A stretch of 44,532 nt of DNA from Escherichia phage vB_EcoP-CC1, in sequence record OX457022; one strand, given 5' to 3'. The position numbers and the translations under genes were made by a program. Below the pieces are notes generated by a model, which did no database searches, had not been told where the DNA came from, and worked only from the letters and a program-made list of their open reading frames with translations. Shown here one piece after another: positions 1-44,532 of the stretch (position 1 is its first letter; every line of letters starts with the position of its first letter).

Positions 1-127
1 CATGTGCTGAAGGAGTGGCCTACATGCGACCAAACTTCGACTTCGGAGCTACAGTATCGGAAGACAATAATCTCATCCTGTGGCCGACTGAAGGTGAGAG
101 AATCGCTCTCATAGATGCTGACATGTT
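1..127. repeat. terminal overlap of the contig (identical to 44406-44532)
   Basis: Exact 127-nt identity between window start and end; consistent with a circular or concatemeric assembly opened inside the exonuclease gene. Confidence 0.95.
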
Positions 128-1052
128 ACCTTATATCGTAGGGTACACAATCAGTGACATGACTTATGTACGAGCCACAACTCGTGTTAAGTCAGGACAA
201 GTCCAATCAATCAAAGATACACCTGAGTGTAAGCAAGCATGTGACCGTGTGAACTCCTTGCTTAACTCTTGGGTGTATGCAGCAGAGTGTGATGCAGCTA
301 AGCTATTCATGACAAAATCAGAAGCTAACTTCCGTGTTCGCCTAGCATTCACCAAGCCTTATAAGGGTCAACGTAAGACCGAGAAGCCTCCATTCTTCTA
401 TGAATTACGAGAGCATCTCTTAGAGGTGCATGGTGCAATCTTGGCTGATGGTGAGGAAGCAGATGACCTAATGAGCATCGCACAATGGGACAGCCATCGC
501 CGCTTCCAGCAAGATACAGGTAACGAGTTCCCTATCGGTAGTCCAGAGCATAAAGCATTCTCTGATACTTGCATCGTTTCCTTAGATAAGGATTTGATGA
601 TTGTTCCCGGTTGGCATCTACTGCCGGGAGGTGAGAAGAAATGGGTAGAGCCTATGGGTTGGCTTGAGCTACGCCGCAAGGCTAATGGTCAAGTGAAAGA
701 CCTTAAAGGTGCTGGCCTCATGTTCCATTATGCACAGATGATTATCGGTGATGACATAGATAATTATGCTGGCATACCTGGGCGTGGAGCTAAATATGCC
801 TATGATCTTCTCAAAGATTGCAAGACAGAGAAAGAGTTGTACATGGCAGTGCTTGGTGCTTACAAGGCTAAGTTCGGACATGGACAAGTTAAGATTAAGA
901 ATTACCGAGGTGGTTATCGTATCGGCAAGGCTTTTGATCTCATGCTTGAATGTGGTCGCCTAGCTCACATGGCGAGATTCAAAGGTGATATCTGGAGGGC
1001 TGATAAGAATGAAATCTTATGGGGAGAAGGTGATGGATGGCTAGTAAACTAA
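24..1052 (+). CDS. 5'-3' exonuclease (T7 gene 6-like, FEN/H3TH family)
   Basis: ATG at 24 with AGGAG 8 nt upstream (ORF track begins at GTG 15); H3TH-like motif GDDIDNYAGIPGRGAKYA; sits beside endonuclease and ligase. Confidence 0.8.
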   Translation: MRPNFDFGATVSEDNNLILWPTEGERIALIDADMLPYIVGYTISDMTYVRATTRVKSGQVQSIKDTPECKQACDRVNSLLNSWVYAAECDAAKLFMTKSEANFRVRLAFTKPYKGQRKTEKPPFFYELREHLLEVHGAILADGEEADDLMSIAQWDSHRRFQQDTGNEFPIGSPEHKAFSDTCIVSLDKDLMIVPGWHLLPGGEKKWVEPMGWLELRRKANGQVKDLKGAGLMFHYAQMIIGDDIDNYAGIPGRGAKYAYDLLKDCKTEKELYMAVLGAYKAKFGHGQVKIKNYRGGYRIGKAFDLMLECGRLAHMARFKGDIWRADKNEILWGEGDGWLVN

Positions 1053-1447
1053 AATCTTCAGAGGTGGCAGCTTATAAGAAAGAGCTTATGGAGAAGCAAG
1101 GTTGGAAGTGTCCTCTGTGCGGAGGCAGCCTTAAGGCAGTAAGTCCTATCAACCGTGTACTTGACCATGATCATGAGACAGGTTTCTGTCGTGCTGTTGT
1201 GTGTCGTGGCTGCAACGGTGCAGAAGGAAAGATTAAGGGTGTTATATCTGGCTACGGAAAGGCAGGTAATAACCGCTACTTCCAACTACAATGGTTAGAA
1301 CGCCTGTATAACTACTGGAAGTTGCATAGTACACCTCAGACAGATAAGTTATATCATAATCATAAAACGGAGGCAGAGAAACGAGAGGCTAAAAATCGTA
1401 AGGCTCGCCTGGCTTATGCAAGAAAGAAGGAGGTTAAGAGTGGCTAA
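1037..1447 (+). CDS. endonuclease VII-like Holliday-junction resolvase
   Basis: 136 aa; Cys/His motifs CPLCGG and LDHDHETGFCRAVVCRGCNG typical of the endo VII/HNH-like family; overlaps exonuclease stop. Confidence 0.7.
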   Translation: MASKLKSSEVAAYKKELMEKQGWKCPLCGGSLKAVSPINRVLDHDHETGFCRAVVCRGCNGAEGKIKGVISGYGKAGNNRYFQLQWLERLYNYWKLHSTPQTDKLYHNHKTEAEKREAKNRKARLAYARKKEVKSG

Positions 1448-2447
1448 ACTTCGTAGCCTTTATAAAGACTCCGAGGTGCTTGATGCAATCGAGCAAGCTA
1501 CCGACGAGAAAGGTAATGTTAACTATAATGAGATGGCGAAGGTTCTATCTAGCCACCCTGTGGGTAAGAAGATCACCCGTCAACTTGCTCGCTACTGGCA
1601 TGGTCAATTCAAGAAGACCAAGAAGAATGGTGATTATTACCAGACTCTTCTGCAAGAGGATAAGCGTATCAAAGAAGAGCGTAAGCTCAGGACTCCTGAC
1701 CGCTACGAGGATTTGGCTATTGTACCATTGCCTGACTCGCCTCATCGAAGTGTACTGGTAATCCCTGATACTCATGCACCTTATGAGCACCCAGATACCT
1801 TAGAGTTCCTTGCAGCAGTGGCAGCACGTTATCGACCAGACACAGTGGTACATCTTGGAGATGAGGCAGATAAACATGCCCTGTCATTCCATGATTCGGA
1901 TCCAAATTTGGACAGTGCTGGCATGGAGTTAGAGAAGGCTCGTGTCTTCATGCACAAGTTGCACAAGATGTTCCCTGTGATGCGCCTGTGTCACTCTAAC
2001 CACGGATCTATGCATTTCCGTAAAGCGAGCGCCAAGGGTATTCCTGTGCAATACCTGCGTACCTATCGTGAAGTCTTCTTCCCGAATGGAGGTGGCGACC
2101 AGTGGGACTGGCAGCATACTCATGTGCTTGAGTTGCCGAATGGCGAACAGGTGGCATTCAAGCACCAACCTGCTGGTTCTGTCCTAGCAGATGCAGCGCA
2201 TGAGCGCATGAACCTAGTGTGTGGACATTTGCATGGTAAGATGTCGGTAGAGTATGCACGTAATACACATGAACAGTATTGGGCTGTGCAGGGTGGCTGT
2301 CTGATTGATGAGTCCTCTCGTGCATTTGCCTATGGTCGTGAGTCTAAATACAAGCCAGCATTAGGTTGTGTGGTTATTCTGGAAGGTGTGCCTCATATTG
2401 TCCCGATGCAGACCAATAGTGACAATCGCTGGATTGGTAAGATTTAG
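1416..2447 (+). CDS. calcineurin-like metallophosphoesterase
   Basis: Ordered signature motifs IPDTHAPY (DxH), HLGDEADKH (GDxxD), CHSNHGSMH (GNH-like), CGHLHGK; alternative GTG start at 1440 has AAGGAGG 7 nt upstream. Confidence 0.8.
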   Translation: MQERRRLRVAKLRSLYKDSEVLDAIEQATDEKGNVNYNEMAKVLSSHPVGKKITRQLARYWHGQFKKTKKNGDYYQTLLQEDKRIKEERKLRTPDRYEDLAIVPLPDSPHRSVLVIPDTHAPYEHPDTLEFLAAVAARYRPDTVVHLGDEADKHALSFHDSDPNLDSAGMELEKARVFMHKLHKMFPVMRLCHSNHGSMHFRKASAKGIPVQYLRTYREVFFPNGGGDQWDWQHTHVLELPNGEQVAFKHQPAGSVLADAAHERMNLVCGHLHGKMSVEYARNTHEQYWAVQGGCLIDESSRAFAYGRESKYKPALGCVVILEGVPHIVPMQTNSDNRWIGKI

Positions 2448-2463
2448 TTGACACTATAGAACA
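2442..2463 (+). promoter_or_regulatory. phage RNAP promoter, SP6-type variant (ATTTAGTTGACACTATAGAAC), +1 G at 2459
   Basis: Matches core GACACTATAG of the promoter family; -12 to -10 is GTT rather than the class I CTG/CCG. Confidence 0.6.
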
Positions 2464-2515
2464 AAGGGCAGGTAATGTCTTGCCCTTGATTGTATAGTGA
2501 ATGGAGGAATTAATT

Positions 2516-3001
2516 ATGTCAGAGACTGATATTAGAAAGATTGATATTGGAGAGTACGTCGTACGCCGTGCAGCTTACCGAGATGCCAACTGGAATAAAC
2601 TGTGTGAAAGACTAAACAAGAAACCAGATGAGGTATTCAAAGTATCCAGTGCAGAACCTAATTATAACTCTATCATGTTAGAAGGTGTTGAGAAGCGCGA
2701 ATGGTATGCGCCTTACTTCCATGTTGTTGACTCATTGCAAGGTGAAGAACCTAACACGTTGGACAACAATATGGTTACTAAGCCGAAGCACTATGAGTTC
2801 TTCGAAGGTGTAGAAGCGATTACTATCATTGCCCGCAGCATGACCGAGAAGCAATTCGCTGGCTATTGCATGGGTAATGCTTTGAAGTACCGCCTACGTG
2901 CAGGTAAGAAGTTCAACACTGAAGAAGACCTGAAGAAAGCAGACTACTATAAGGAGTTATTCCAGAAGCATCGTCACGAATGTATTGATGAGGATATTTG
3001 A
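2516..3001 (+). CDS. T7 gp1.7-like nucleotide (dNMP) kinase
   Basis: C-terminal half KPKHYEFFEGVEAITIIARSMTEKQFAGYCMGNALKYRLRAGKK...ADYYKELFQKH matches recalled C-terminus of T7 gene 1.7 protein; GGAGGA 8 nt upstream of ATG 2516. Confidence 0.55.
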   Translation: MSETDIRKIDIGEYVVRRAAYRDANWNKLCERLNKKPDEVFKVSSAEPNYNSIMLEGVEKREWYAPYFHVVDSLQGEEPNTLDNNMVTKPKHYEFFEGVEAITIIARSMTEKQFAGYCMGNALKYRLRAGKKFNTEEDLKKADYYKELFQKHRHECIDEDI

Positions 3002-3002
3002 T

Positions 3003-3950
3003 ATGAATATCTTTGAGTTCCTAGGTCTTCCAGAAGATCACCGCAACCACCCATTCATGTTGGTGAAACATCGTGGTGAAGTCCCTGAGAAGAAATTAAC
3101 CTTTCCATGTTATGCACAGGTGAAACGAGATGGAATATTCAGTGCTGTTGTGGTGCGTAATGATGGTGCTGTTGCCATCTTTGGTCGTACTGGTAAGAAG
3201 CTCGCAAATGTTGAAGCCTTGGAAAAGACATTTAGTGTATTTCCTGTCGGGTTGTATCTTGGTGAGTTGCAATCTATGGCTGTTGATGTTTATCTTGAAG
3301 CTCTATCAGGAGTGGTAAACCCTAATCGTACAGAGCCACTTGATTTCATAGGCCAGCAGATTAAAGACAACCTGTATATCGACTTCTTCGATATGTTAAC
3401 CATTAAGGCATTCCATGATGGATTCACTGATGTTTCTTATCTCAAACGTTACGATGCTTTACATCGTCGCATCGGCACTCATCTTAGCGGGTACAACGCT
3501 ATTCTTCCTATTACTCCTTGCCATAATGAGAGAGAGGTTGAAGCGTTTGCTCAAGAGCAAATAGATGCAGGCCGAGAGGGTGCTGTCTTTAAACTTGACT
3601 GTGATTATGAAGCAGGCCATAAAGGATATCGTCAGACTAAAGAAGTCCGTAAGGTAACTTATGACCTTACTTGTATTGGCTTTGAAGAAGGCAAAGGTAA
3701 GTACAAGGGTAAGGTAGCTAACCTCATTTTCAAATGGAAAGGAGGCAAGACAATCAAAGCTATGCTAGGTAAGGGGTGGACTCATGCAGATGCAGAACAG
3801 ATGTTCCATGATATTAAACATGGCGGACGATTGAATGTCATTGGTAAAATCTTTGAAGTCAAAGGTCTTCAGGATTCAAGCAAGGGCAACATTCGTCAGC
3901 CCAAAGCGGGAGAATTAAGACATGACAAAGATGAACCAGATTTCTTTTGA
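3003..3950 (+). CDS. ATP-dependent DNA ligase
   Basis: Adenylation motif KxDG present as VKRDGIFSAVV; ~315 aa; ORF track start 2985, likely start ATG 3003. Confidence 0.8.
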   Translation: MNIFEFLGLPEDHRNHPFMLVKHRGEVPEKKLTFPCYAQVKRDGIFSAVVVRNDGAVAIFGRTGKKLANVEALEKTFSVFPVGLYLGELQSMAVDVYLEALSGVVNPNRTEPLDFIGQQIKDNLYIDFFDMLTIKAFHDGFTDVSYLKRYDALHRRIGTHLSGYNAILPITPCHNEREVEAFAQEQIDAGREGAVFKLDCDYEAGHKGYRQTKEVRKVTYDLTCIGFEEGKGKYKGKVANLIFKWKGGKTIKAMLGKGWTHADAEQMFHDIKHGGRLNVIGKIFEVKGLQDSSKGNIRQPKAGELRHDKDEPDFF

Positions 3951-4137
3951 TAGTATGAAGGCGACTCGTGCTGTTGAGGTAGCAGAAGCTATCTTTGAAA
4001 CTTTATCTTGCGGCATGGAAGTGCCATATACTTTACTGGCTGATGCAGAAGAACTTGGTCTTTCTGTAGAAGCTATCCAAGAGAAAGTTGAGGAACTCTA
4101 TGGTACAGACGAAGAAGAAACCGACGATTTCATTTGA
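3922..4137 (+). CDS. hypothetical small acidic protein
   Basis: 71-codon ORF, GGGAGA 8 nt upstream of ATG; overlaps ligase 3' end; acidic C-terminus. Confidence 0.4.
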   Translation: MTKMNQISFDSMKATRAVEVAEAIFETLSCGMEVPYTLLADAEELGLSVEAIQEKVEELYGTDEEETDDFI

Positions 4138-4141
4138 GGGG

Positions 4142-4270
4142 ATGGAGATGCTTGAGATGATTCTCAAGCCTTCTTCTCCGAAAGTAACTAAGACTCATGA
4201 AGAGTTAATCGTAGATGAAGTGAAGCGTTACATTATGGATTGTGTCAAGGCACAACTGGTAGTCCAATGA
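4142..4270 (+). CDS. hypothetical protein (about 42 aa)
   Basis: Short ORF filling gap between flanking genes; start uncertain (ORF track 4088). Confidence 0.25.
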   Translation: MEMLEMILKPSSPKVTKTHEELIVDEVKRYIMDCVKAQLVVQ

Positions 4271-4728
4271 TACGTCAAGCATCTTTCTTAGATATACCTG
4301 AGATTATTAATCTAGGCGACAAGTATGTAGAAGAGGAAGTTAAGGTAGTAGCACACCACTCTCCTTCATGGAATGCAGAACAAAGCGCAGCAAACCTGTG
4401 TGCATCTCTTGTCCGAGATGATTTATTCTTATGGGTTGCTGTAGATGAGGGAATCATTGTAGGATTCCTATGGGCTGGGTATCATGACTTAGCACCTTGG
4501 ACACCAGTGCGTGTTGCATCTGATATTCTTTTCTACATCGTACCAGAGAAGCGTGGCACTCTCTTAGGAATGAGACTTATCAAAGCCTATAAGCAATGGG
4601 CTTTTGAGAAGGAATGTGCTGAAGTGAGACTGTCTATTGCCTCTGGTATCAATGAAGAGCGTGTTGGGCGTATGTATGAGCGGTTAGGCTTTGAGACGTT
4701 CGGCACTGTGTATAACCTGAAACTTTAA
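4267..4728 (+). CDS. hypothetical protein, possible GNAT-like acetyltransferase
   Basis: 153 aa; VPEKRGTLLGMRLI and C-terminal YERLGFE resemble GNAT motif A and C-terminal signature; weak, unverified. Confidence 0.4.
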   Translation: MIRQASFLDIPEIINLGDKYVEEEVKVVAHHSPSWNAEQSAANLCASLVRDDLFLWVAVDEGIIVGFLWAGYHDLAPWTPVRVASDILFYIVPEKRGTLLGMRLIKAYKQWAFEKECAEVRLSIASGINEERVGRMYERLGFETFGTVYNLKL

Positions 4729-4948: not shown

Positions 4949-6499
4949 ATGATGCAAGACACCGACCTTGAGTATGGTGGAAAGCGGTCGAAGATACCTA
5001 AGTTGTGGGAGAAGCTATCTACTAAGCGCAGTCCTTTCATGGACAGGGCAAAGCACTATGCGAGGTTGACTTTGCCATACCTCATGAATGAGGAGGGAGA
5101 CAACAATACTTCTCAGAATGGGTGGCAAGGTGTAGGTGCACAGGCCACTAACCACTTAGCTAACAAGTTAGCACAAGTTCTCTTCCCTGCTCAACGCTCT
5201 TTCTTCCGAGTTGACTTGACAGCAAAAGGGGAGAAGATATTAAACAACAGAGGTCTTAAGAAGACCAAATTAGCTACGCTGTTTGCTCAAGTAGAGACTG
5301 CTGCTATGAAGCAACTAGAGCAGCGGCAGTTCCGCCCAGCGGTGGTAGAATGCTTCAAGCATTTGATTGTTGCAGGTAACTGTATGCTGTACAAGCCAAG
5401 CAAGGGTGCAATCAGTGCGATACCTATGCATCACTATGTAGTTAATCGAGATGCTAATGGGGAACTGCTGGATATTATCTTACTACAAGAGAAGGCGCTA
5501 AAGACATTCGACCCTGCAACTCGCATGGCTATTGAAGTAGGCATGAAAGGTAAGAAGTGCAAAGACAGTGATAATGTAAAACTCTACACACACGCCAAGT
5601 ATGAGGGTGAAGGTTTTTGGGAATTAAATCAATCAGCAGATGATATTCCTATTGGTAAATCTAGCAGAATCAAGGCTGATAAACTCCCATTCATCCCTCT
5701 TACTTGGAAGAGGTCTTATGGAGAAGATTGGGGTCGCCCTCTTGCAGAGGATTATTCTGGAGATTTATTCGTAATCCAATTCCTGTCTGAAGCGGTTGCG
5801 CGTGGCGCTGCTTTGATGGCCGACATTAAATACCTGATTCGTCCAGGTGCTCAGACAGATGTAGACCACTTTGTTAACTCAGGAACAGGCGAAGTAATCA
5901 CTGGTGTGGAAGAGGACATCCATATCGTACAACTAGGCAAGTATGCAGACCTAACACCAATAAGTGCTGTACTAGAGGTTTATACCAGACGCATCGGCGT
6001 AGTCTTTATGATGGAGACTATGACACGACGAGATGCAGAACGTGTAACTGCTGTAGAGATACAGCGAGATGCTCTTGAGATTGAGCAGAACATGGGTGGC
6101 GTATACTCACTCTTTGCTACGACTATGCAGACACCCGTGGCTATGTGGGGTTTGCTTGATGCCGGAGACTCTTTCACCAGTGACCTAGTAGATCCTGTTA
6201 TCATCACAGGTATTGAAGCATTAGGTCGCATGGCAGAGTTGGATAAGCTGGCTAACTTCGCTCAGTATATGGCATTACCTATGAGTTGGCCTGAGCCAGT
6301 ACAGGCAGCGGTGAACTGGCCTGATTATATGGATTGGGTTCGTGGTCAGATCTCCGCTGAACTTCCATTCCTAAAATCAGAAGAGCAGATGAAGAAAGAG
6401 CAAGCACAGATGGCACAAGCACAGCAAGAGCAGATGCTTAATGAAGGAGTAGCTAAAGCTGTACCTGGTGTCATTCAACAAGAACTTAAGGAGGCGTAA
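4949..6499 (+). CDS. head-to-tail connector (portal) protein
   Basis: 516 aa; position before scaffold/capsid; segments WQGVGAQATNHLANKL and ERVTAVEIQ resemble recalled T7 gp8 WQAVGARGLNNLASKL / ERVTAEEIR. Confidence 0.9.
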   Translation: MMQDTDLEYGGKRSKIPKLWEKLSTKRSPFMDRAKHYARLTLPYLMNEEGDNNTSQNGWQGVGAQATNHLANKLAQVLFPAQRSFFRVDLTAKGEKILNNRGLKKTKLATLFAQVETAAMKQLEQRQFRPAVVECFKHLIVAGNCMLYKPSKGAISAIPMHHYVVNRDANGELLDIILLQEKALKTFDPATRMAIEVGMKGKKCKDSDNVKLYTHAKYEGEGFWELNQSADDIPIGKSSRIKADKLPFIPLTWKRSYGEDWGRPLAEDYSGDLFVIQFLSEAVARGAALMADIKYLIRPGAQTDVDHFVNSGTGEVITGVEEDIHIVQLGKYADLTPISAVLEVYTRRIGVVFMMETMTRRDAERVTAVEIQRDALEIEQNMGGVYSLFATTMQTPVAMWGLLDAGDSFTSDLVDPVIITGIEALGRMAELDKLANFAQYMALPMSWPEPVQAAVNWPDYMDWVRGQISAELPFLKSEEQMKKEQAQMAQAQQEQMLNEGVAKAVPGVIQQELKEA

Positions 6500-7407
6500 T
6501 GTCTTTTGAAATTATTAATGAACCTGTAAGTCAGTCTGACGTTACTGAACCTAAGGAGGTTGCTGATGTTACTACTACCGACACTGATTCTACTGTTGAT
6601 TCTTCTGGCAGCGATGTACAAGCTGACACAGGCAGTGCAGACGTACAAGACACCGGAGGAGCTGATATTGGAGGAGATGCAGGACAAGGAGAAGCATCTA
6701 GTGGATCGGATGATAAACCTGAGCCAGATGGTTCCTCGGACGAAGATGTACGATTCTTCTTTGGCGAACAAGAAGTAGAGATTGAAATCCCTGAAGATGT
6801 CTCCTCTGCCTTGAAAGAGAAAGGCATTGATGCAATGCAGGTAGCCAAGGAGCTTTACGGTGAAGGTGGCAAGTTTGAACTTACGGAAGAGACAAAGCAG
6901 AAGCTGTATGATGCATTTGGCAAGTTCGCAGTAGACGCTTATCTGAATGGACTGAAAGCATCTAACGAGGCATTCCTGATTAAATCTGAAGCTCAAGCTA
7001 AAGAAGCAGAAGCAGCAGATGCCCAACGCTTTACCGATATTGCATCGGAAGTTGGCGGAGAAGAAGGCTGGTCACGACTAGAAGAGTGGGCGCTAGAGAC
7101 GCTGTCTGATGAAGAATTAGCAGCCTTCAATGCAGTGATGGCCTCAGGTAATCAGTACCTGCAACAGTATGCTGTGCGTGAGCTGGAAGGTCGCCGTAAG
7201 CAAGCACAGGGCGATGACAAGCCATCATTGATTGAGCCGTCAGCACCTGCGAAGGCTAATGATGAGAACAGCCCACTTACGAGAGATCAGTATGTCCGAG
7301 CTATCGCAACTCTTAGCCAGAAATATGGTAATGACCGTAAAGCTATGGCGGAGGCTCAGGCGAAACTTGACGCTCGCCGTCGTGCTGGTATGGCTCGCGG
7401 ACTGTAA
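6499..7407 (+). CDS. capsid scaffolding protein
   Basis: 302 aa, highly acidic low-complexity N-terminal half, between portal and major capsid genes; start overlaps portal stop (TAATG). Confidence 0.75.
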   Translation: MSFEIINEPVSQSDVTEPKEVADVTTTDTDSTVDSSGSDVQADTGSADVQDTGGADIGGDAGQGEASSGSDDKPEPDGSSDEDVRFFFGEQEVEIEIPEDVSSALKEKGIDAMQVAKELYGEGGKFELTEETKQKLYDAFGKFAVDAYLNGLKASNEAFLIKSEAQAKEAEAADAQRFTDIASEVGGEEGWSRLEEWALETLSDEELAAFNAVMASGNQYLQQYAVRELEGRRKQAQGDDKPSLIEPSAPAKANDENSPLTRDQYVRAIATLSQKYGNDRKAMAEAQAKLDARRRAGMARGL

Positions 7408-7413
7408 TTCAGT

Positions 7414-7435
7414 ATTTACTGGACACTATAGAAGG
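7414..7435 (+). promoter_or_regulatory. phage RNAP promoter class I (ATTTACTGGACACTATAGAAGG), +1 G at 7431; capsid promoter
   Basis: Exact family consensus 55 nt upstream of capsid ATG. Confidence 0.85.
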
Positions 7436-7449
7436 GAGAAAACTCTCCC
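7434..7449 (+). promoter_or_regulatory. 5' leader stem-loop of capsid transcript (GGGAGA-AAAC-TCTCCC)
   Basis: 6-bp inverted repeat at transcript +4 to +19, followed by strong RBS TAAGGAGA; analogous to the T7 gene 10 leader hairpin. Confidence 0.5.
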
Positions 7450-7485
7450 TAGTTATCAATTTGATTTATAAGGAGATTATAATAC

Positions 7486-8685
7486 ATGTCTACACCGAAC
7501 ACTCTGACTAACGTTGCTGTGTCCGCATCTGGTGAGGTTGACAGCCTTCTTATTGAGAAGTTTAATGGTAAGGTAAACGAGCAGTACCTGAAAGGTGAGA
7601 ACATTCTGTCCTACTTTGATGTACAGACGGTAACTGGTACTAACACGGTTAGCAATAAATATTTAGGTGAAACTGAGTTGCAGGTGTTAGCACCGGGTCA
7701 GTCACCTAATGCTACTCCAACTCAGGCCGATAAAAACCAGTTGGTAATTGATACCACTGTGATCGCCCGTAACACCGTGGCACACATCCACGACGTACAG
7801 GGTGACATCGACAGCCTTAAGCCTAAGTTGGCTATGAACCAAGCCAAGCAACTGAAGCGTCTGGAAGACCAGATGGCAATCCAGCAGATGCTGTTAGGTG
7901 GCATCGCTAACACCAAAGCAAAGCGTAACAAACCTCGTGTAAAAGGACACGGCTTCTCTATCAACGTTAACGTGACTGAAAGTGAAGCACTGGCTAACCC
8001 GCAGTATGTCATGGCTGCTGTAGAATATGCTCTGGAGCAGCAGCTTGAACAGGAAGTGGATATCTCTGATGTAGCGATCCTGATGCCGTGGAAATTCTTC
8101 AACTCGCTGCGTGACGCAGACCGCATTGTAGATAAGACTTACACTATTAGTCAGTCCGGTGCTACTATCAGTGGCTTTGTTCTGTCTTCCTACAACTGCC
8201 CTGTTATCCCGTCTAACCGATTCCCGACATTTGTACAGAGTGCTCCACATCACTTACTGTCTAACGAAGATAACGGTTATCGTTATGACCCTACCGCAGA
8301 GATGAACGGCGCTGTAGCTGTGCTGTTTACTGCTGATGCATTGCTGGTAGGTCGCACCATTGAAGTAACAGGTGACATCTTCTATGAGAAGAAAGAGAAG
8401 ACTTACTATATTGATACCTTCATGGCTGAAGGTGCAATCCCTGACCGCTGGGAGGCTGTGTCTGTAGTTACTACTAAACGTAATGCAGGTACTGGTGCGG
8501 CTGACGGTGCAGGCGACGATCACGCAACCGTACTGGCTCGTGCACAGCGTAAGGCTGTCTACGTCAAGACCGCAGGTGCTGCCGCATTATCCGCCGCTAG
8601 CCTGCAAGCAGAAGACTTAGTAGCCGCTGTACGTGCTGTAATGGCTAATGACGTCAAGCCGACTGCACTGAAACCTACTGAGTAA
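7486..8685 (+). CDS. major capsid protein
   Basis: 399 aa; own strong promoter and RBS, followed by terminator; canonical position after scaffold gene. Confidence 0.85.
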   Translation: MSTPNTLTNVAVSASGEVDSLLIEKFNGKVNEQYLKGENILSYFDVQTVTGTNTVSNKYLGETELQVLAPGQSPNATPTQADKNQLVIDTTVIARNTVAHIHDVQGDIDSLKPKLAMNQAKQLKRLEDQMAIQQMLLGGIANTKAKRNKPRVKGHGFSINVNVTESEALANPQYVMAAVEYALEQQLEQEVDISDVAILMPWKFFNSLRDADRIVDKTYTISQSGATISGFVLSSYNCPVIPSNRFPTFVQSAPHHLLSNEDNGYRYDPTAEMNGAVAVLFTADALLVGRTIEVTGDIFYEKKEKTYYIDTFMAEGAIPDRWEAVSVVTTKRNAGTGAADGAGDDHATVLARAQRKAVYVKTAGAAALSAASLQAEDLVAAVRAVMANDVKPTALKPTE

Positions 8686-8694
8686 TAACCTATG

Positions 8695-8730
8695 CCCTAT
8701 CTACCTTGCGTAGGTAGGGTTCTTTTGTTT
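8695..8730 (+). terminator. T-phi-like transcription terminator after capsid gene
   Basis: 10-bp stem CCCTATCTAC/GTAGGTAGGG (one G-U pair), loop CTTGC, then TTCTTTTGTTT. Confidence 0.7.
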
Positions 8731-8740: not shown

Positions 8741-9481
8741 ATGCCTTTAATTCAAAATACAAGTGATGTTGGACGTATCATGGCTGAGGCTTCCTTCAAT
8801 ATCATTGATAGCAAACTGGAAGCAGTTAACCTGTGTATGCGAGCTATCGGTCGTGAGGGTGTGGATTCCCTTGACTCTGGCGACTTAGATGCTGAAGATG
8901 CTAATAAGATTATTGATATTGTCTCACAACGTTTCCAGTACAATAAAGGTGGTGGTTGGTGGTTTAACAGGGAACCTAATTGGCTGCTTAAACCTGATAC
9001 CAACGGCGAAGTGAATATGCCAAACAATTGCCTTGCGGTACTCCAGTGTTACGCCCTAGGTGAACGTAAAGTACCTATGACTATACGAGCAGGCAAGTTG
9101 TATTCTGTTTGGAATCACACTTTCGACATGTCAAAGTATGTGAATCAGGATGGGCGTATTAGGTTGACTCTGGTAACATTACTACCTTTTGAGCATCTAC
9201 CTGCAAGTGTTATGCAAGCTATTGCCTATCAAGCTGCCGTAGAGTTTATTGTGTCTAAGGATGCTGATAAGACTAAGTTACAAGCACACCAGCAGATCGC
9301 AGCACAGCTTATGATTGATGTTCAGTCAGAGCAGTCTTCTCAGAAGAGACTCAATATGCTTGTACATAACCCTACTCAGCGCAACTTCGGAATCATGGCA
9401 GGTGGCTCACAGAATGTACCAGCATTCTCCTATTCCCCTTATGATACTTACCCTGTAAGGCCGTGGGAGGTTGATCGCTGA
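8741..9481 (+). CDS. tail tubular protein A
   Basis: 246 aa directly after capsid and before large tail tube gene; RBS AGGAGGG. Confidence 0.75.
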   Translation: MPLIQNTSDVGRIMAEASFNIIDSKLEAVNLCMRAIGREGVDSLDSGDLDAEDANKIIDIVSQRFQYNKGGGWWFNREPNWLLKPDTNGEVNMPNNCLAVLQCYALGERKVPMTIRAGKLYSVWNHTFDMSKYVNQDGRIRLTLVTLLPFEHLPASVMQAIAYQAAVEFIVSKDADKTKLQAHQQIAAQLMIDVQSEQSSQKRLNMLVHNPTQRNFGIMAGGSQNVPAFSYSPYDTYPVRPWEVDR

Positions 9482-31639: not shown

Positions 31640-31703
31640 TGAGCCTATAGCCTACTTAAGTGGGCTATGTGAACACCATTCATTAACTCAAAAGGTGACT
31701 ATT

Positions 31704-35357: not shown

Positions 35358-35391
35358 ACCTATTACCTGTAACATTTAATTAACATAACCG

Positions 35392-35409: not shown

Positions 35410-35410
35410 T

Positions 35411-35432
35411 ATTTACCGGACACTATAGGATA
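35411..35432 (+). promoter_or_regulatory. phage RNAP promoter class I (ATTTACCGGACACTATAGGAT), +1 G at 35428
   Basis: Family consensus with C at -11. Confidence 0.8.
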
Positions 35433-35463
35433 ACCGTCGGAGACGGAAAGAGAAGGGAAGATA

Positions 35464-35513
35464 AGGATATAAAGGAAGTAATAGGTATTAAAGGTTGTAT
35501 AGGTTTACCTAGG
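35464..35513. repeat. periodic AGG array (AGG at 35464, 35473, 35483, 35492, 35501, 35511)
   Basis: Six AT-rich (T)A(A)AGG units at 9-10 bp period between two promoters downstream of RNAP gene; candidate replication origin. Confidence 0.8.
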
Positions 35514-35572
35514 AATACTTATTACCTTCTTCCTTCCTCTTCTTACTACCTAGAGGAAGGGCAGACCTAGGT

Positions 35573-35590
35573 TGTCTCACATGTGAGACT
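35573..35590. repeat. palindrome family member TGTCTCAC-AT-GTGAGACT
   Basis: 4 nt upstream of promoter-like sequence at 35595. Confidence 0.85.
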
Positions 35591-35594
35591 TCGT

Positions 35595-35616
35595 ATTTAC
35601 CGGACAGTATAGATAA
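35595..35616 (+). promoter_or_regulatory. variant phage promoter (ATTTACCGGACAGTATAGATAAG), +1 G at 35612
   Basis: C to G change at -5 relative to family consensus; directly upstream of gp1.1-like gene. Confidence 0.45.
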
Positions 35617-35642
35617 GACTAACTTACTTTGGAGATTTAACC

Positions 35643-35774: not shown

Positions 35775-37763
35775 ATGGCTATTATTCAGAACGTACCGTG
35801 CCCTGCCTGCCAAAAGAATGGACACGATAAATCCGGCAACCATCTTATGATATTTGAGGATGGCGCTGGTTACTGTAACCGTGGTCATTTCCATGATAAT
35901 GGCAAACCTTATTACCATAAGCCAGAGGGCGGCATCGAGATAACCGAATTGCCCATTACTGGCAATATCAAATACACACCTTCTCAATTCAAAGAAATGG
36001 AGAAGGAAGGGAAGATAAGCGACCCTAAGCTACGCGCCATCGCACTTGGTGGTATGCGTATGAAAGACCGTTGGGAGGTCATGAATGAGCAAGAAAGGGC
36101 AGACCAAGAAGCAGAGTGGAAACTTGATGTTGAATGGTTCCTCACGCTTAAGCGTAAGAACCTTGTTTCCCGACACATTCGCGGCGACATTTGCGCATTG
36201 TATGATGTACGTGTCGGACACGATGAAGAGGGTAGAGTCTCGCGGCATTACTATCCACGCTTCGAGAAAGGTGAGCTAGTAGGAGCTAAGTGTCGCACAT
36301 TACCTAAAGACTTTAAGTTTGGTCATTTAGGTAAACTCTTTGGTATGCAAGATCTTTTCGGGATGAATACTTTGTCTCACGTGTTAGACAAGGGAAGACG
36401 AAAGGATTGCTTGCTTATTGTTGGTGGGGAACTGGATGCGCTAGCAGCGCAGCAGATGCTCCTTGATTCTGCCAAGGGTACTAAGTGGGAAGGTCAACCT
36501 TACCATGTATGGTCTGTTAACAAAGGGGAGTCTTGCCTTGAAGAGATTGTGCAGAACCGTGAACACATCGCCCAATTCAAGAAGATTATTTGGGGCTTCG
36601 ATGGGGATGAGGTAGGGCAGAAGCAGAACCAGCAAGCGGCTCGCCTGTTCCCTGGCAAATCTTATATCCTTGAATACCCCTCTGGTTGCAAAGATGCCAA
36701 CAAGGCATTGATGGCTGGTAAAGCCAAAGAATTTGTGGATGCTTGGTTTAATGCAAAGTCATCTGATGAAGTCTTTGGTAGCCAGATTAAATCTATCGCA
36801 TCTCAAAGGGATAAGCTCAAGGCTGCACGTCCAGAACAAGGGCTGTCATGGCCTTGGCCTAAGCTAAACAAGGTAACACTGGGTATCCGTAAGAACCAGC
36901 TTATCATTATAGGTGCAGGCTCTGGTGTTGGTAAGACAGAGTTCCTCCGTGAAGTGGTAAAGCATCTCATCGAAGAACACGGTGAATCTGTAGGTATCAT
37001 TTCTACAGAAGACCCGATGGTCAAAGTGTCCCGTGCTTTTATCGGTAAGTGGATTGATAAGCGTATTGAACTACCGCCAACCAATGACCCGAAAGAAGAT
37101 GGCTACCGTGAGGTGTTCGACTATACAGAGGAAGAGGCTAATGCTGCCATTGATTATGTAGCTGATACAGGGAAGCTGTTTGTAGCTGACCTAGAGGGTG
37201 ACTATTCGATGGAGAAGGTAGAGCAAACTTGCCTAGAGTTTGAGGCTATGGGTATTTCTAATATCATCATTGATAACTTAACGGGGATTAAATTAGATGA
37301 GCGTGCTTTTGGTGGGAAGGTTGGTGCACTTGATGAATGCGTCAAACGAATTGGTACTATCAAAGACCGACATGCGGTTACGATTTTCCTTGTCTCTCAC
37401 CTTACACGCCCTCCGGCAAACCGTACCCAACACGAAGAAGGTGGCGAAGTTATCCTTTCTGACTTCCGAGGCTCAGGCGCTATCGGATTCTGGGCATCTT
37501 ACGCCTTGGGGATTGAGCGTAATACAAGAGCTGAAACGCTTGATGAACGGACTACCACGTACATCTCATGTGTCAAAGACCGCGACCAAGGTATCTACAC
37601 TGGAACCAAGGTCATGCTTAAGGGTGACATTCAAACCGGACGTTTAATGGAACCACAAGCCCGTACTAAGTCATTTGATACAGGTGAAGCAAGGCAACAA
37701 GAAGTACCTGATTTACCGGACACTATAGAAGAGACAACCTTTGACGATGAACAGGAGTTTTGA
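35775..37763 (+). CDS. DNA primase/helicase (T7 gp4-like)
   Basis: N-terminal zinc-binding CPACQKNG...GYCNRGHFHD, central primase-type region, helicase Walker A GAGSGVGKT; acidic C-terminus DDEQEF. Confidence 0.9.
   Translation: MAIIQNVPCPACQKNGHDKSGNHLMIFEDGAGYCNRGHFHDNGKPYYHKPEGGIEITELPITGNIKYTPSQFKEMEKEGKISDPKLRAIALGGMRMKDRWEVMNEQERADQEAEWKLDVEWFLTLKRKNLVSRHIRGDICALYDVRVGHDEEGRVSRHYYPRFEKGELVGAKCRTLPKDFKFGHLGKLFGMQDLFGMNTLSHVLDKGRRKDCLLIVGGELDALAAQQMLLDSAKGTKWEGQPYHVWSVNKGESCLEEIVQNREHIAQFKKIIWGFDGDEVGQKQNQQAARLFPGKSYILEYPSGCKDANKALMAGKAKEFVDAWFNAKSSDEVFGSQIKSIASQRDKLKAARPEQGLSWPWPKLNKVTLGIRKNQLIIIGAGSGVGKTEFLREVVKHLIEEHGESVGIISTEDPMVKVSRAFIGKWIDKRIELPPTNDPKEDGYREVFDYTEEEANAAIDYVADTGKLFVADLEGDYSMEKVEQTCLEFEAMGISNIIIDNLTGIKLDERAFGGKVGALDECVKRIGTIKDRHAVTIFLVSHLTRPPANRTQHEEGGEVILSDFRGSGAIGFWASYALGIERNTRAETLDERTTTYISCVKDRDQGIYTGTKVMLKGDIQTGRLMEPQARTKSFDTGEARQQEVPDLPDTIEETTFDDEQEF
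37711..37732 (+). promoter_or_regulatory. phage RNAP promoter class I embedded in primase/helicase 3' end (ATTTACCGGACACTATAGAAGAG), +1 G at 37728
   Basis: Exact consensus inside coding sequence (encodes DLPDTIEET). Confidence 0.7.
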
Positions 37764-37924: not shown

Positions 37925-37940
37925 TGTATTTATCAGGGCT

Positions 37941-37958
37941 TGTCTCACATGTGAGACA
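37941..37958. repeat. 18-bp perfect palindrome TGTCTCACATGTGAGACA
   Basis: 17 nt after stop of small ORF; identical to copy at 15571. Confidence 0.9.
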
Positions 37959-37996
37959 GGCTCTTATTAAGTACATTAAATAACTGGAGATTGATT

Positions 37997-38729: not shown

Positions 38730-38918
38730 ATGACTAAAGTATTGATTTATATGAGAGGTGCTAATAAATGCTATGCAGTTGTAGCACCTGATGGGGTCAA
38801 GCCTTACGGTACTTCAAAAGGATTAGCATTAATAGGTGCTAGTCGCAGTGCAAGTTTCCAAATGGAACTTTTTGGTCATTGGACTGAAAAAAAGAATTCC
38901 GTGAAGAGTTTAATGTAA
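38730..38918 (+). CDS. hypothetical protein (62 aa)
   Basis: AAGGAG RBS 7 nt upstream. Confidence 0.5.
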   Translation: MTKVLIYMRGANKCYAVVAPDGVKPYGTSKGLALIGASRSASFQMELFGHWTEKKNSVKSLM

Positions 38919-39201: not shown

Positions 39202-39309
39202 ATGCCACGTGATTATGATTCTGATTGGGACTACTATGACTCAATGAATCCAAAACCCGAACGTTCAGATGATTACTACGAAACAGAGGCAATGTATGAA
39301 AACTATTGA
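39202..39309 (+). CDS. hypothetical small acidic protein (35 aa)
   Basis: Below ORF-track cutoff; GGAGGTG RBS; Asp/Tyr-rich; overlaps DNA polymerase start. Confidence 0.4.
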   Translation: MPRDYDSDWDYYDSMNPKPERSDDYYETEAMYENY

Positions 39310-41842
39310 TTGGAAGAAGGAAGCAGAAGGCCGCATCCTCGTCATGGACGCAGAAGCTAAAGGTCTGCTTGATGCTATCCGCTACGGTCATCGTGAAGAT
39401 GTACACATCATTTGCTGCATGGACTTGCTCACCACTGAGGAGTTCCTCTTCTTCGACCCATATGAGATGCGTGACCCTGAAGCAAGAGAACGCCTGAAGG
39501 AGTGGGAAGGCCATCAAGATGGTGACTTGGTTGACGGTGTTAACTTCCTGAAACACTGTGAAGCTATCGTGTCACAGAACTTCCTAGGGTATGACGGCCT
39601 CCTTTTTGAGAAAGCCTTCCCTGATATCTGGAAAGGTTTTAACTATACCGAAAGGCGCGGCAAGGGCAGACTCCGTGCCGACCTGTGTCCTGTGCGAGTC
39701 ATGGACACGCTGGTGATGAGCCGCCTGTTAAACCCCGATAGACGCCTTCCTCCGCAAGCATATGCCAAAGGTATGGGTAACGTCGCCCCTCATTCAATTG
39801 AGGCGCACGGCATCCGTATAGGACGCTATAAGCCGGAGAATGAGGACTGGTCTAAACTAACTGACCACATGGTTCACCGTGTCCGCGAGGACGTGGCAAT
39901 CGGTCGTGACCTTTTCCTGTGGCTGTACAATGGAGAGTGGACGGAGCATAAACGCCGTGGCGTGAATAAACGCACTGGCCTAGGCATTGAGACAGCCTTC
40001 CACATGGAGTCTATTGTGGCGCTGGAGATGAGCCGTCAGGCAGAGCGTGGATTCCGTCTGGATATTGACAAAGCACTAGCGCGATGCGAAGAACTGGACG
40101 CTAAGATTGATGAGACAGTCGCAGCGTTCCGCCCTCACATGCCTATGCGTATCAAGTCTAAACCTTTTAAACCGGAAGAAAAGAATGAAGTATGCCAACG
40201 CGCAAATGAGTATGGAGCTAGCAACAATATACCTACTGTCCTTGACCCCTCACACTTTCTTCATGCCGAGAGACGAGGAGATCGCAAGACAGTATGGAGT
40301 GTCACTACTAAGTCTGGTGATTGGTCGGCTAGCGTCAAGAAAGACTTTCCTCACCTTAGAGGAAACCGTAATGACACGCCAAGCATCAAGTGGATTGGCG
40401 CTTACTCGCCTGTTACTTTCGAAGAGATTCCCTTGGGTAACAGGGATACAGTTAAGCAAGTGCTCTATGATTATGGATGGAAAGGTGTTGAATTTAACGA
40501 TACCGAGCAAGCGCATCTCGATGAGCATGGCGTATTACCCAAACCTTGGAGTGGAAAGATAAATGAGAAATCCCTTACTTTATGGCAAGAAAGAGCCGCA
40601 CGTGAAGGTAAAACAGTACCAGATTGGTGCTTGGGTATCGCTGCATGGTACATACTCGTATCCCGTCGTGGTCAGATCCTCAACCGTGGTGACGTTGAAG
40701 CCTTCGATCAGAAGGGGGCGTGGCCTTCGCAAGCTGGTGTACGAAAGTGTCGCGGCCTTATACCTGTAGCCTTTAACAAGGAATTAGGAATCAATGCGCA
40801 ACAATACTACGAGAGGTATGGGTATTGGCCTACGTCTGACAAGGATGACGGAGAGTGGCGTGTGCCAGCTATTGCTATTAGTATTGGCACTTCTACGTTC
40901 CGTATGCGTCATCGCAATGTGGTTAATATTCCTGCCCGTGGCTTGTATCCTTTACGTGATTTATTCATAGCAGGTAAAGGTAAGCTAATCCTTGGTTGTG
41001 ATGGTGCAGGTCTTGAACTACGTGTACTTTCTCACTTCATGAATGACCCTGAGTACCAAGATATTGTACTGCATGGCGATATACATACTCATAACCAGAT
41101 GAAGGCGGGTCTTCCTAAGCGTGATATGGCGAAGACATTTATATATGCCTTCCTTTACGGCTCTGGTATAGCTAACCTTGCAGCAGTGTGCGGTGTTACT
41201 GAGGAAGAAATGAAGGAAGTTGTGGCAAGATTCGAGATTGAATTACCATCCCTTGCACGTCTTCGTGAGAATGTTATCGCACAAGGCAACAAGTTTGGAT
41301 ACTTACAAGCACCTGACGGGCATTGGGGTCGCATCCGTATGTCTGGTGGAGAACTTAAAGAGCACACTATGCTTAATGTATTACTCCAAATGACTGGCTC
41401 TTTGTGTATGAAATACGCATTGGTCAAAGCGTTTGCAGTGATGCGCAAGGAAGGTGTGGCCTTAGATAGTATGGGACACCCTTGTGGTGTAGCTAACGTG
41501 CACGATGAAATCCAGATGGAAGTACCTGAAGAAGAGGTATTGTATCTTAACTACGACCTACCTTTCACCTTAGAGGGGTTTGAAACAGAGAAGGCTGCTG
41601 TGAAAGCAGTATTCGATGCAGAGGAGAAACGTGTTCATGTGGATTCTGAAGGACGTATGTGGTCTGCTGCAAATCTCATTAGTGTTGATGCTGCTGCTGG
41701 TGTACTTCATTGCCAGCGTCGTTATCACCGCGCAGGGCATATCATTGCCGACGCCATGACTTGGGCTGGTCAGTATCTGAAGATGCGTTGCCCGATGGCA
41801 GGCGAGTATAAGATTGGCGCAAGCTGGAAGGAAACGCACTAG
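39296..41842 (+). CDS. DNA polymerase (family A, T7 gp5-like)
   Basis: 848 aa from ATG 39296 (ORF track 39269); polymerase-type motifs incl. HDEIQMEV; position after primase-helicase. Confidence 0.9.
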   Translation: MKTIDWKKEAEGRILVMDAEAKGLLDAIRYGHREDVHIICCMDLLTTEEFLFFDPYEMRDPEARERLKEWEGHQDGDLVDGVNFLKHCEAIVSQNFLGYDGLLFEKAFPDIWKGFNYTERRGKGRLRADLCPVRVMDTLVMSRLLNPDRRLPPQAYAKGMGNVAPHSIEAHGIRIGRYKPENEDWSKLTDHMVHRVREDVAIGRDLFLWLYNGEWTEHKRRGVNKRTGLGIETAFHMESIVALEMSRQAERGFRLDIDKALARCEELDAKIDETVAAFRPHMPMRIKSKPFKPEEKNEVCQRANEYGASNNIPTVLDPSHFLHAERRGDRKTVWSVTTKSGDWSASVKKDFPHLRGNRNDTPSIKWIGAYSPVTFEEIPLGNRDTVKQVLYDYGWKGVEFNDTEQAHLDEHGVLPKPWSGKINEKSLTLWQERAAREGKTVPDWCLGIAAWYILVSRRGQILNRGDVEAFDQKGAWPSQAGVRKCRGLIPVAFNKELGINAQQYYERYGYWPTSDKDDGEWRVPAIAISIGTSTFRMRHRNVVNIPARGLYPLRDLFIAGKGKLILGCDGAGLELRVLSHFMNDPEYQDIVLHGDIHTHNQMKAGLPKRDMAKTFIYAFLYGSGIANLAAVCGVTEEEMKEVVARFEIELPSLARLRENVIAQGNKFGYLQAPDGHWGRIRMSGGELKEHTMLNVLLQMTGSLCMKYALVKAFAVMRKEGVALDSMGHPCGVANVHDEIQMEVPEEEVLYLNYDLPFTLEGFETEKAAVKAVFDAEEKRVHVDSEGRMWSAANLISVDAAAGVLHCQRRYHRAGHIIADAMTWAGQYLKMRCPMAGEYKIGASWKETH

Positions 41843-43742: not shown

Positions 43743-43792
43743 GAAGAATTTTAATCGGCGATAATGCCATAACTAACAAAGGAGAATTTAAT

Positions 43793-44161
43793 ATGTTCAA
43801 GATTGAAACTATCGTAAACCGTGTTGTTAAAGGTGCTGCTCTGGTGTCCGTTGAATCTTTCATTATCGTCGATGAAGCTGATCAACTGGTAGCTGGCACT
43901 AAGGCTTACGATACCCGTGAAGAAGCTCAGGCTAAGATTGACAGCATGGGTAACTTTGCTGCTGGTCTGGAGTTCGCTCGTGCTTGCTTCCCTGAGCAGG
44001 CTGACAAAGCACAGATTGGTAAGGCTAATATCGTAGCTGAATATCTGGATTGGGTTGCTGCTGGTAAACCAGTGAAAGAAGCTAAGGCTGAAGAAGCTGA
44101 AGCTCCTGCAGTAGAAGAAACCAAAGCAGAAGAAGCTCTGTCTGCTGAAGAAGAATTTTAA
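43793..44161 (+). CDS. hypothetical acidic protein (122 aa), own promoter and terminator
   Basis: RBS AAAGGAGA; net charge about -12; C-terminus AEEEF; monocistronic unit. Confidence 0.65.
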   Translation: MFKIETIVNRVVKGAALVSVESFIIVDEADQLVAGTKAYDTREEAQAKIDSMGNFAAGLEFARACFPEQADKAQIGKANIVAEYLDWVAAGKPVKEAKAEEAEAPAVEETKAEEALSAEEEF

Positions 44162-44167
44162 TTGATG

Positions 44168-44203
44168 CCCTGTCTGCCTTAGTGTAGGCAGGGTCTTTTG
44201 TGT
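44168..44203 (+). terminator. T-phi-like terminator (paralog of 8695-8730)
   Basis: Stem CCCTGTCTGC/GTAGGCAGGG (two G-U pairs), loop CTTAGT, then TCTTTTGTGT; compensatory changes relative to the 8695 copy. Confidence 0.7.
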
Positions 44204-44225
44204 AATAGTTATTGGAGAATGAATT

Positions 44226-44519
44226 ATGCCGACTATTGAAGAACGTTTCCTGATTCACGTAGACTTCTCACCCATACATCTTGGTTATCTTATCACTATT
44301 CTCTTAGGAGAGGAGGTTTATCTACATAATTACCTTATACCTGAATATGTATGTTTTAGGGATAAGATACACCCGCTTACTTGGGCACAAGAGTGGCTGC
44401 GTGAACATGTGCTGAAGGAGTGGCCTACATGCGACCAAACTTCGACTTCGGAGCTACAGTATCGGAAGACAATAATCTCATCCTGTGGCCGACTGAAGGT
44501 GAGAGAATCGCTCTCATAG
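44226..44519 (+). CDS. hypothetical protein spanning the contig junction
   Basis: 97-codon ORF with GGAGA RBS; runs into the duplicated 127 nt and would overlap exonuclease start by about 90 nt in another frame. Confidence 0.3.
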   Translation: MPTIEERFLIHVDFSPIHLGYLITILLGEEVYLHNYLIPEYVCFRDKIHPLTWAQEWLREHVLKEWPTCDQTSTSELQYRKTIISSCGRLKVRESLS

Positions 44520-44532
44520 ATGCTGACATGTT
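44406..44532. repeat. terminal overlap of the contig (identical to 1-127)
   Basis: Exact 127-nt identity with window start. Confidence 0.95.

Follow-up and report, generated by a model that had tools for sequence, protein, structure and literature searches.

The 44,532-nucleotide (nt) stretch analysed here in full (the window; sequence record OX457022, Escherichia phage vB_EcoP-CC1) is almost certainly the complete genome of a lytic, K1-5-type podophage of the T7 supergroup (Autographiviridae, Molineuxvirinae, Vectrevirus), namely the deposited phage vB_EcoP-CC2 or a variant that differs from it by two nucleotides, in the form of a circularised short-read assembly opened at an arbitrary point. 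When the window halves were compared with a phage collection by megablast, OX638290.1 (vB_EcoP-CC2, 44,531 bp, filed under the same family, subfamily and genus) matched the first 25 kb at 100%. The two are 99.99-100% identical from end to end, with one substitution and one single-base homopolymer indel in 44,405 nt, and at a limit of at least 95% genome identity they are one species. They agree in gene content and differ in rotation, base 1 of the window corresponding to base 12008 of OX638290.1 by direct comparison. At position 21366 the window has G and the record T, which gives Ala (window) or Ser (record) in the central domain of a 1027-aa long tailspike, and the poly-A tract at 38886-38892 is A7 in the window and A6 in the record. 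The next-closest records in the megablast were Raoultella phage P3a (vB_Ro_P3a), Escherichia phages G3A1 (vB_EcoP-G3A1), 101117UKE2 and 101118B1 (98.5-98.7%) and R4596 (vB_EcoP_R4596, 96.4%), followed at a greater distance by LL11 and CrRp3 (~90%) and SP6 (~76%). CC2 came from pig faeces and was isolated on E. coli of sequence type 131 (ST131), which it infects; it was assembled with metaviralSPAdes and has been published as a candidate agent for the decolonisation of E. coli ST131 (PMC10433417, Microbiology 2023).

The form of the assembly is explained by its ends. Bases 1-127 of the window recur exactly at 44406-44532, an overlap not mentioned in the first-pass annotation, and OX638290.1 likewise ends in an exact 127-nt copy of its own start. 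An overlap of 127 nt is the expected leftover of a de Bruijn assembler working at k=127 (SPAdes) when a path closes on itself, and the terminal identity is such a k-mer overlap of a circularised SPAdes path. Because the overlap is an assembly duplicate, the unique sequence amounts to 44,405 bp (1-44405). Reads from the two copies of a terminal repeat would collapse onto one another and so allow the assembler to close the genome into a circle, which would account for both the overlap and the rotated start. The first-pass annotation had called the genome circularly permuted; this describes the assembly, whereas in this group of phages the virion DNA ends at fixed sites and carries direct terminal repeats. 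It had also placed the opening inside the exonuclease gene, which is accurate for the 3' end only: the last 104 bases of the window duplicate the start of the exonuclease gene by way of the overlap, but the exonuclease ATG is 23 nt downstream of base 1, which falls in an overlapping gp19-like gene, and the exonuclease gene is intact. The features concerned are:

1-127, no strand: assembly overlap, identical to 44406-44532
24-1052, + strand: 5'-3' exonuclease, K1-5 gp20 homologue, intact (96% identical to K1-5 gp20 over 342 aa; ribosome-binding site AAGGAG at 10-15; weak match to Pfam 5_3_exonuc)
44226-44519, + strand: gp19-like gene of 97 codons (phrog_10319, E 1e-24; 42% identical to K1-5 gp19), overlapping the exonuclease start by 91 nt and holding the opening point of the window

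A gp19/gp20 overlap of 88-91 nt is annotated also in K1-5 and SP6. Neither OX638290.1 nor PQ197423.1 has the gp19-like gene itself annotated.

The physical ends can be placed by homology. Exact direct terminal repeats (DTRs) are present in the records of K1-5 (234 bp, verified here), P3a (283 bp) and R4596 (285 bp). Projected onto the window, the left ends of these three fall at 29438, 29437 and 29436, respectively, and the right edge of the repeat falls at 29718 in all of them. Other records agree: EEc2 and EEc4 start at window position 29436, and the last base falls at 29718 in VEc3 and mutPK1A2 and at 29717 in Sem2. These boundaries predict a DTR, collapsed in the assembly to a single copy at 29436/8-29718 (281-283 bp), with the left physical end at 29436-29438 and the right at 29718.

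29438-29718, no strand: predicted direct terminal repeat, single copy (collapsed in assembly), from homology to the DTRs of relatives

The predicted repeat is 56% G+C, against 45% genome-wide, and falls inside a real non-coding block at 29378-30263, in keeping with the earlier proposal that the ends lie in a non-coding block at 29.4-30.3 kb. The virion DNA is accordingly expected to be linear, with a predicted length of 44,686-44,688 bp (~44.69 kb). Scholl and colleagues are said to have given, in 2004, terminal repeats of 174 bp for SP6 and 234 bp for K1-5.

Since the assembly closes into a circle through its 127-nt overlap, and since sequence alone would look the same for a permuted genome, one could suppose that the virion DNA is circularly permuted and terminally redundant, packaged by a headful mechanism with no fixed ends. 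We consider this very unlikely. The large terminase is of T7 type (Pfam Terminase-T7_RNaseH-like) and 96.7% identical to K1-5 gp40, the boundaries of the exact DTRs of K1-5, P3a and R4596 agree within 2 bases on the window, and DTRs have been shown experimentally in the SP6-like phage UAB_Phi78 (Bal31), while read mapping indicates a terminally repetitive genome in CrRp3. By analogy with T7, SP6 and K1-5, a linear virion DNA of ~44.69 kb with a direct terminal repeat of ~281-283 bp would form concatemers through its repeats during replication, and the T7-type terminase would cut these at fixed sites, regenerating the repeat.

The lineage of the phage is indicated by its RNA polymerase (RNAP) and its promoters. 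The RNAP shares 97% identity with its K1-5 counterpart and 85% with that of SP6, while T7 RNAP is distant (a full-length match of 380 bits). The core GACACTATAG, one of the features by which the first-pass annotation placed the genome in the SP6/K1-5 lineage, occurs 12 times, always on the + strand, where 0.17 occurrences are expected by chance. The promoter consensus is ATTTACTGGACACTATAG, and the extended consensus, ATTTACTGGACACTATAGAAG, is identical to that of K1-5's own promoters. Eight promoters lie within one mismatch of the K1-5 18-mer, compared with 1 of the 12 for the SP6 18-mer ATTTAGGTGACACTATAG, the classical SP6 promoter. No T7-type promoter (TAATACGACTCACTATAG) was found in the window within 3 mismatches.

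32691-35318, + strand: single-subunit RNA polymerase (Pfam RNA_pol, E 2e-89, and RPOL_N, E 3e-31; full-length match to T7 RNAP structures)
7414-7431, + strand: representative phage promoter ATTTACTGGACACTATAG, one of 12
ends at 2459, 7431, 14409, 22794, 24899, 27251, 35428, 37728, 38615, 42044, 42507 and 43738, + strand: the 12 promoter copies
ends at 31397 and 35612, + strand: weaker promoter variants

Judged from their sequences, the RNAP and the promoter consensus are K1-5-type and not SP6-type, which predicts the promoter specificity typical of Vectrevirus. The genus criterion of the International Committee on Taxonomy of Viruses (ICTV) is a genome-wide nucleotide similarity of at least ~70%. 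By one-way BLAST the intergenomic similarity is ~95% to P3a and ~72% to K1-5 (87% coverage x 83% identity), the latter just above the genus value, and the taxonomy of the deposited record is also Vectrevirus. The family assignment is clear: the window has its genes on one strand, a genome size within ~40-45 kb, T7-type head, tail and packaging genes and its own single-subunit RNAP, and the best matches of both RNAP and terminase lie inside Autographiviridae. The placement of the phage in the SP6/K1-5 lineage rather than in T7 proper (Teseptimavirus) therefore stands, given the distant RNAP and the missing T7 promoters; within that lineage the genome is K1-5-like (Vectrevirus) and not SP6 proper.

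Membership of SP6 proper (genus Zindervirus) instead of the K1-5 group has some features in its favour, such as the GACACTATAG core common with SP6, the gp36 protein, 88% identical to SP6 gp36, and the promoter ending at 14409, which carries the SP6-type AGGT at -13 to -10. It is nevertheless extremely improbable in view of the RNAP identities and promoter counts given above, a conserved hairpin element (see below) that is the K1-5 variant and not the SP6 variant, and a DNA identity to SP6 of ~76% over ~85% of the first 25 kb, or roughly 65% overall when this megablast result for the window's first 25 kb is taken for the whole genome. Salmonella phage SP6 (Zindervirus SP6, AY370673) agrees with the window in overall organisation; besides the differences already named, it has a 320-aa adaptor, gp37, where the window phage has the 1027-aa protein.

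Some points weigh against the assignment of the window to CC2 and Vectrevirus as described here. The figure of 72% for similarity to K1-5 was estimated by one-way BLAST and lies near the 70% genus threshold. The physical ends are placed from relatives only, among which the left end varies by 1-2 bases (29436, 29437, 29438), and the transcription programme (see below) and concatemer packaging would follow what is known of T7, SP6 and K1-5 biology. Finally, the window is not byte-identical to OX638290.1, and an exact-protein look-up of its long tailspike returned no other assembly. Because of the A7/A6 and G/T differences, together with a long-tailspike protein that has no exact match elsewhere, the window is to be regarded as a variant or a separate assembly of CC2.

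Compared with K1-5 (Vectrevirus K15, AY370674), the window is a mosaic. Gene order is the same: all 52 K1-5 proteins were mapped on the window, and the series is colinear from gp1 to gp48, missing only a few small open reading frames (ORFs) and the K1-5-specific tailspike bodies. The earlier claim of a complete SP6/K1-5-type genome is upheld. The primase/helicase and the DNA polymerase are 97-98% identical to K1-5 gp9 and gp13 (98% and 97.5%), and the terminase genes 96-97% identical to gp39 and gp40 (97% for the large subunit after rounding). Promoter consensus, predicted DTR position, the hairpin element and a CTTAGT array are also common to both. The two differ in the ejectosome, the tailspikes and the DTR length (234 bp in K1-5). 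The gp35 and gp36 homologues (12612-19425) are only 43% and 39% identical to those of K1-5, and the genes neighbouring this module are 76-97% identical; by protein identity the gp36 internal virion protein is SP6-type and the ejectosome module is mosaic. K1-5 has a short 320-aa adaptor, gp37, and two separate tailspikes (K5 lyase gp46 and endosialidase gp47), whereas the window encodes a fused adaptor-tailspike and one separate spike:

19425-22508, + strand: long tailspike, 1027 aa, with a gp37-type adaptor N-terminus, a phrog_19921 body and a C-terminal intramolecular-chaperone domain
27334-28857, + strand: second tailspike, 507 aa from the ATG at 27334 (preceded by ribosome-binding site GGAGA), with a gp47-like N-terminal peptide, a pectate-lyase-fold body and an S74 chaperone domain

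Residues 1-300 of the long tailspike are 44% identical to K1-5 gp37 and match the tail adaptor protein of PDB 7y22 (E 1e-57). Its middle part falls into phrog_19921 ("tail spike protein", E 5e-279), and the idea that the central domain might be a new fold was dropped on this ground; the Pfam matches are Phage_T7_tail and Peptidase_S74, and the S74 domain at the C-terminus matches the T5 pb1 chaperone domain. Full-length homologues were found in only six phage records. The second tailspike matches Pfam Pect-lyase_RHGA_epim and Peptidase_S74, and its N-terminal ~55 aa are 54% identical to K1-5 endosialidase gp47, in which this peptide is the part that docks gp47 on the adaptor. By analogy, adsorption would proceed via two tailspikes, one fused to the gp37 adaptor and the other presumed to dock by its gp47-like peptide. 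Such an arrangement is a known kind of module shuffling.

Mosaicism of this kind, which combines an SP6-type gp35/gp36 module with a tailspike module that is novel and with a divergent gene at 25.6-26.3 kb, could also suggest a chimera or misassembly of two related phages, but this is hardly credible, as the same mosaic is colinear at 96-98.7% identity in the independently isolated and sequenced P3a, G3A1, 101117UKE2, 101118B1 and R4596, and the window contains no long internal repeats besides the 127-nt terminal overlap. These five phages match the window over most of the genome and have the same fused adaptor-tailspike and SP6-type ejectosome module, with the 283-285 bp DTRs of P3a and R4596 at the homologous position. 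They differ from it in the divergent 25.6-26.3 kb gene, in the second-tailspike region (~92%) and, for P3a, in an intact gp10.5.

All T7-supergroup proteins identified by Pfam and PHROG profile searches are encoded on the + strand, which is coding over ~93% of the unique sequence; the uninterrupted, one-strand gene set noticed in the first-pass annotation is thus confirmed. A tRNA scan and Rfam at gathering thresholds gave no matches in the window. The genome has in common with T7 (Studiervirinae) the single-subunit RNAP, the one-strand layout, the predicted strategy of direct terminal repeats and the T7-type terminase, portal and tail tubular proteins; it differs in the RNAP sequence and promoters, as noted, in the order of the DNA-metabolism genes and in extra right-end genes that include the tailspikes. 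Starting from the opening point, a DNA-metabolism block (1037-4728; homologues of K1-5 gp21-gp27, PHROG matches of E 9e-48 to 5e-105) is followed by the head block (4949-8685; Pfam Head-tail_con, E 7e-92, phrog_1018 and phrog_267), the tail and ejectosome genes and the packaging genes (phrog_920 and phrog_891 for the holin and terminase block):

1037-1447, + strand: endonuclease VII (PHROG)
1440-2447, + strand: metallophosphoesterase (PHROG)
2501-3001, + strand: nucleotide kinase (PHROG)
3003-3950, + strand: ATP-dependent DNA ligase (PHROG)
within 1037-4728, + strand: two small ORFs between ligase and acetyltransferase
4267-4728, + strand: acetyltransferase (PHROG)
4949-6499, + strand: portal
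6499-7407, + strand: scaffold
7486-8685, + strand: major capsid protein
8741-9481, + strand: tail tubular protein A (PHROG)
9481-11886, + strand: tail tubular protein B (PHROG)
11886-12611, 12612-15554 and 15622-19425, + strand: three internal virion/ejectosome proteins (PHROG)
22508-22702, + strand: holin
22686-22985, + strand: small terminase
22985-24880, + strand: large terminase (Pfam Terminase-T7_RNaseH-like, E 1e-35)

A lysis block with three tandem paralogues (25038-27204; phrog_894 and phrog_8971 for the lysis genes) lies to the right of the terminase genes, and the early and replication genes lie beyond the predicted repeat:

25038-25319, 25337-25624 and 25626-26315, + strand: three tandem paralogues (phrog_2725/32357)
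26315-26659, + strand: M15-type endolysin
26995-27204, + strand: Rz-like spanin, preceded by small ORFs
30264-32627, + strand: early genes (PHROG and record annotation)
30914-31273, + strand: Ocr-like anti-restriction protein of the early block (phrog_2568, E 5e-48)
31695-32627, + strand: gp6 homologue (phrog_4571, E 2.8e-130; 87% identical to K1-5 gp6)
35775-37763, + strand: primase/helicase (Pfam DnaB_C and Toprim_2), separated from the DNA polymerase by small ORFs
38730-38918, + strand: gp10.5 homologue, frameshifted at the poly-A tract 38886-38892
39296-41842, + strand: DNA polymerase, family A (Pfam DNA_pol_A); an ATG at 39269 is also possible

The tandem paralogues have in common an N-terminal domain of ~95 aa (phrog_2725); for the third of them (229 aa, phrog_32357) neither P3a nor K1-5 has a matching DNA sequence. 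In P3a, gp10.5 has an A5 tract and is an intact ORF of 72 aa, and it is frameshifted in both CC2 versions; the difference in tract length between the two may be real heterogeneity or a homopolymer error. The sole minus-strand coding sequence (CDS) of the deposited record (window 31895-32404) has no family match, while the + strand ORF that it overlaps (31695-32627) is the conserved gp6 homologue; the minus-strand call therefore most likely arose from an error of the gene finder.

The repeat is adjoined on its right by a non-coding region with the appearance of a control region. The hexamer CTTAGT is clustered here, with 20 of its 35 genome copies in 29090-30260, all in + orientation, where 0.3 would be expected. 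The cluster flanks the predicted terminal repeat on both sides, is kept in K1-5 and P3a, and includes a tandem array of period 24 at 29768-29874 (Tandem Repeats Finder). Short-repeat arrays adjoin the terminal repeat of T7, which the position of the CTTAGT cluster resembles. Signals for transcription were located as follows:

29719-30263, + strand: left-end non-coding control region, 545 bp, right of the repeat, with the CTTAGT array and the best sigma-70-like promoter
30093-30121, + strand: best sigma-70-like promoter (promoter scan)
35326-35349, + strand: early terminator directly 3' of the RNAP gene, a 10-bp GC-rich stem with a U-run; the R4596 annotation also has a terminator at the orthologous site
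35381-35612, + strand: two hairpin-plus-promoter modules (hairpins 35393-35408 and 35574-35589; promoters ending at 35428 and 35612)
8694-8720, + strand: hairpin and U-run terminator after the capsid gene, T-phi-like (terminator scans; R4596 has an annotated terminator at the orthologous position)
44167-44194, + strand: near-copy of the capsid terminator, after the gp18 homologue

Between the two hairpin-promoter modules lies a purine-rich/pyrimidine-rich inverted repeat, and the downstream gene is the T7 gp1.1 homologue according to the R4596 annotation. By position, 35381-35612 would be the equivalent of the phi1.1A/B origin region of T7. The region 35350-35640 may also be matched, again by position, with the T7 R1.1 region; the inverted repeat at 35450-35543 was considered as an RNase III site, but its fold z-score is only -1.7 and we leave this as a weak idea. 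Following the model of T7, SP6 and K1-5, host RNA polymerase would read the early genes, including Ocr and the phage RNAP, rightwards from the left-end control region and stop at the 35326 terminator. The phage RNAP would then use the 12-14 K1-5-type promoters for the replication, structural, lysis and packaging genes. The location of all these phage promoters on the + strand is directly observed.

The conserved hairpin mentioned above is a side observation of the analysis. Its consensus is TTGTC-YM-AC-loop-GT-KR-GACA, and the core in the window is GTCTCAC-RY-GTGAGAC. The 16-mer has 8 matches in the window (6 exact and 2 with one mismatch) where 0.02 are expected, and it is the most frequent hairpin with a 6-bp stem in the window, K1-5 and R4596.

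starts at 15572, 35393, 35574, 37942, 39155 and 43690, + strand: exact hairpin cores, all intergenic
starts at 30043 (left non-coding block) and 36374 (inside primase/helicase), + strand: one-mismatch copies
37930-37969, + strand: representative hairpin copy

Copies are found after the RNAP gene (two, abutting promoters), after the primase/helicase gene, before the DNA polymerase gene, after gp17 and between the two large ejectosome genes, and occupy orthologous sites in K1-5 and P3a. The family recurs, again at orthologous intergenic sites, in R4596, Era103, SP6, a Klebsiella phage, a Proteus phage and the Vibrio phage phi-A318. Era103 and phi-A318 have the same core as the window, SP6 has GTCTAAC..GTTGGAC, and the Klebsiella and Proteus phages have GTCCAAC..GTTGGAC. 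In IMG/VR the exact 16-mer is rare, occurring in 37 stretches, mostly on contigs of ~44 kb. One viral contig, IMGVR_UViG_2784746770_000001 (129 kb), carries three exact copies of the 16-mer at 964, 1004 and 3004 and is far larger than an SP6-like genome.

The pattern of variation among these copies is that of a paired stem. Between genera the two middle pairs change among U-A/C-G, U.G/A-U and C-G/A-U, and the outer and inner pairs are invariant; pair 17-24, for example, is C-G in 14 of 26 copies and A-U in 8 of 26. For the 26 copies the covariation score is 0.258, compared with 0.164 in shuffles (0 of 500 reach the observed value) and at most 0.142 in slid registers. In the 11 "long" copies all 12 counted positions pair, with 2 G.U pairs and no A.C mismatch, and the sense strand overall has 52 G.U against 19 A.C. 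Pairing is complete, with G.U in excess of A.C, on the sense strand only; the structure is therefore assigned to that strand, in the simplest case as RNA. Three long copies in the window are predicted to fold stably (z-scores of -2.9 to -7.0). A palindrome acting as a double-stranded DNA operator is disfavoured by the sense-strand G.U wobbles, by the variable spacing to promoters and by the 5-nt loops of the Proteus and Vibrio copies. A flip of hairpin orientation at a replication origin was also considered and is not established; it rests on three left-end copies (SP6_493, Kleb_40409 and Kleb_41108), and the SP6 copy at 6093, being symmetric, gives no information.

Since all copies within one genome carry the same lineage-specific variant, recognition by a sequence-specific, possibly phage-encoded factor is suggested, or else concerted evolution among the copies. 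Candidate roles include transcript processing, 3'-end stabilisation, pausing or termination of the phage RNAP and a replication or priming signal; we would favour, as a guess, a signal for transcript processing, stabilisation or pausing. No description of the hairpin was found in the searchable literature or in Rfam, in a search that did not cover the original SP6 and K1-5 genome papers, which may describe the hairpin or the CTTAGT repeats. We propose only tentatively, and with more doubt than confidence, that the family is an undescribed cis-acting element (RNA or single-stranded DNA) common to Molineuxvirinae and at least one phage of Colwellvirinae.

The genome itself adds nothing new, as the phage has already been deposited and published. 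The practical value of the analysis is in annotation. In both assemblies 127 nt of the end are a duplicate and the start is arbitrary, and homology gives predicted positions for the true termini and the ~281-283 bp repeat; the deposited annotation most likely has one CDS on the wrong strand, it omits one conserved gene, and the length of the gp10.5 frameshift tract differs between the assemblies. The hairpin family is the sole item of possible research value: if undescribed, it would provide a testable regulatory element common to SP6-like phages.

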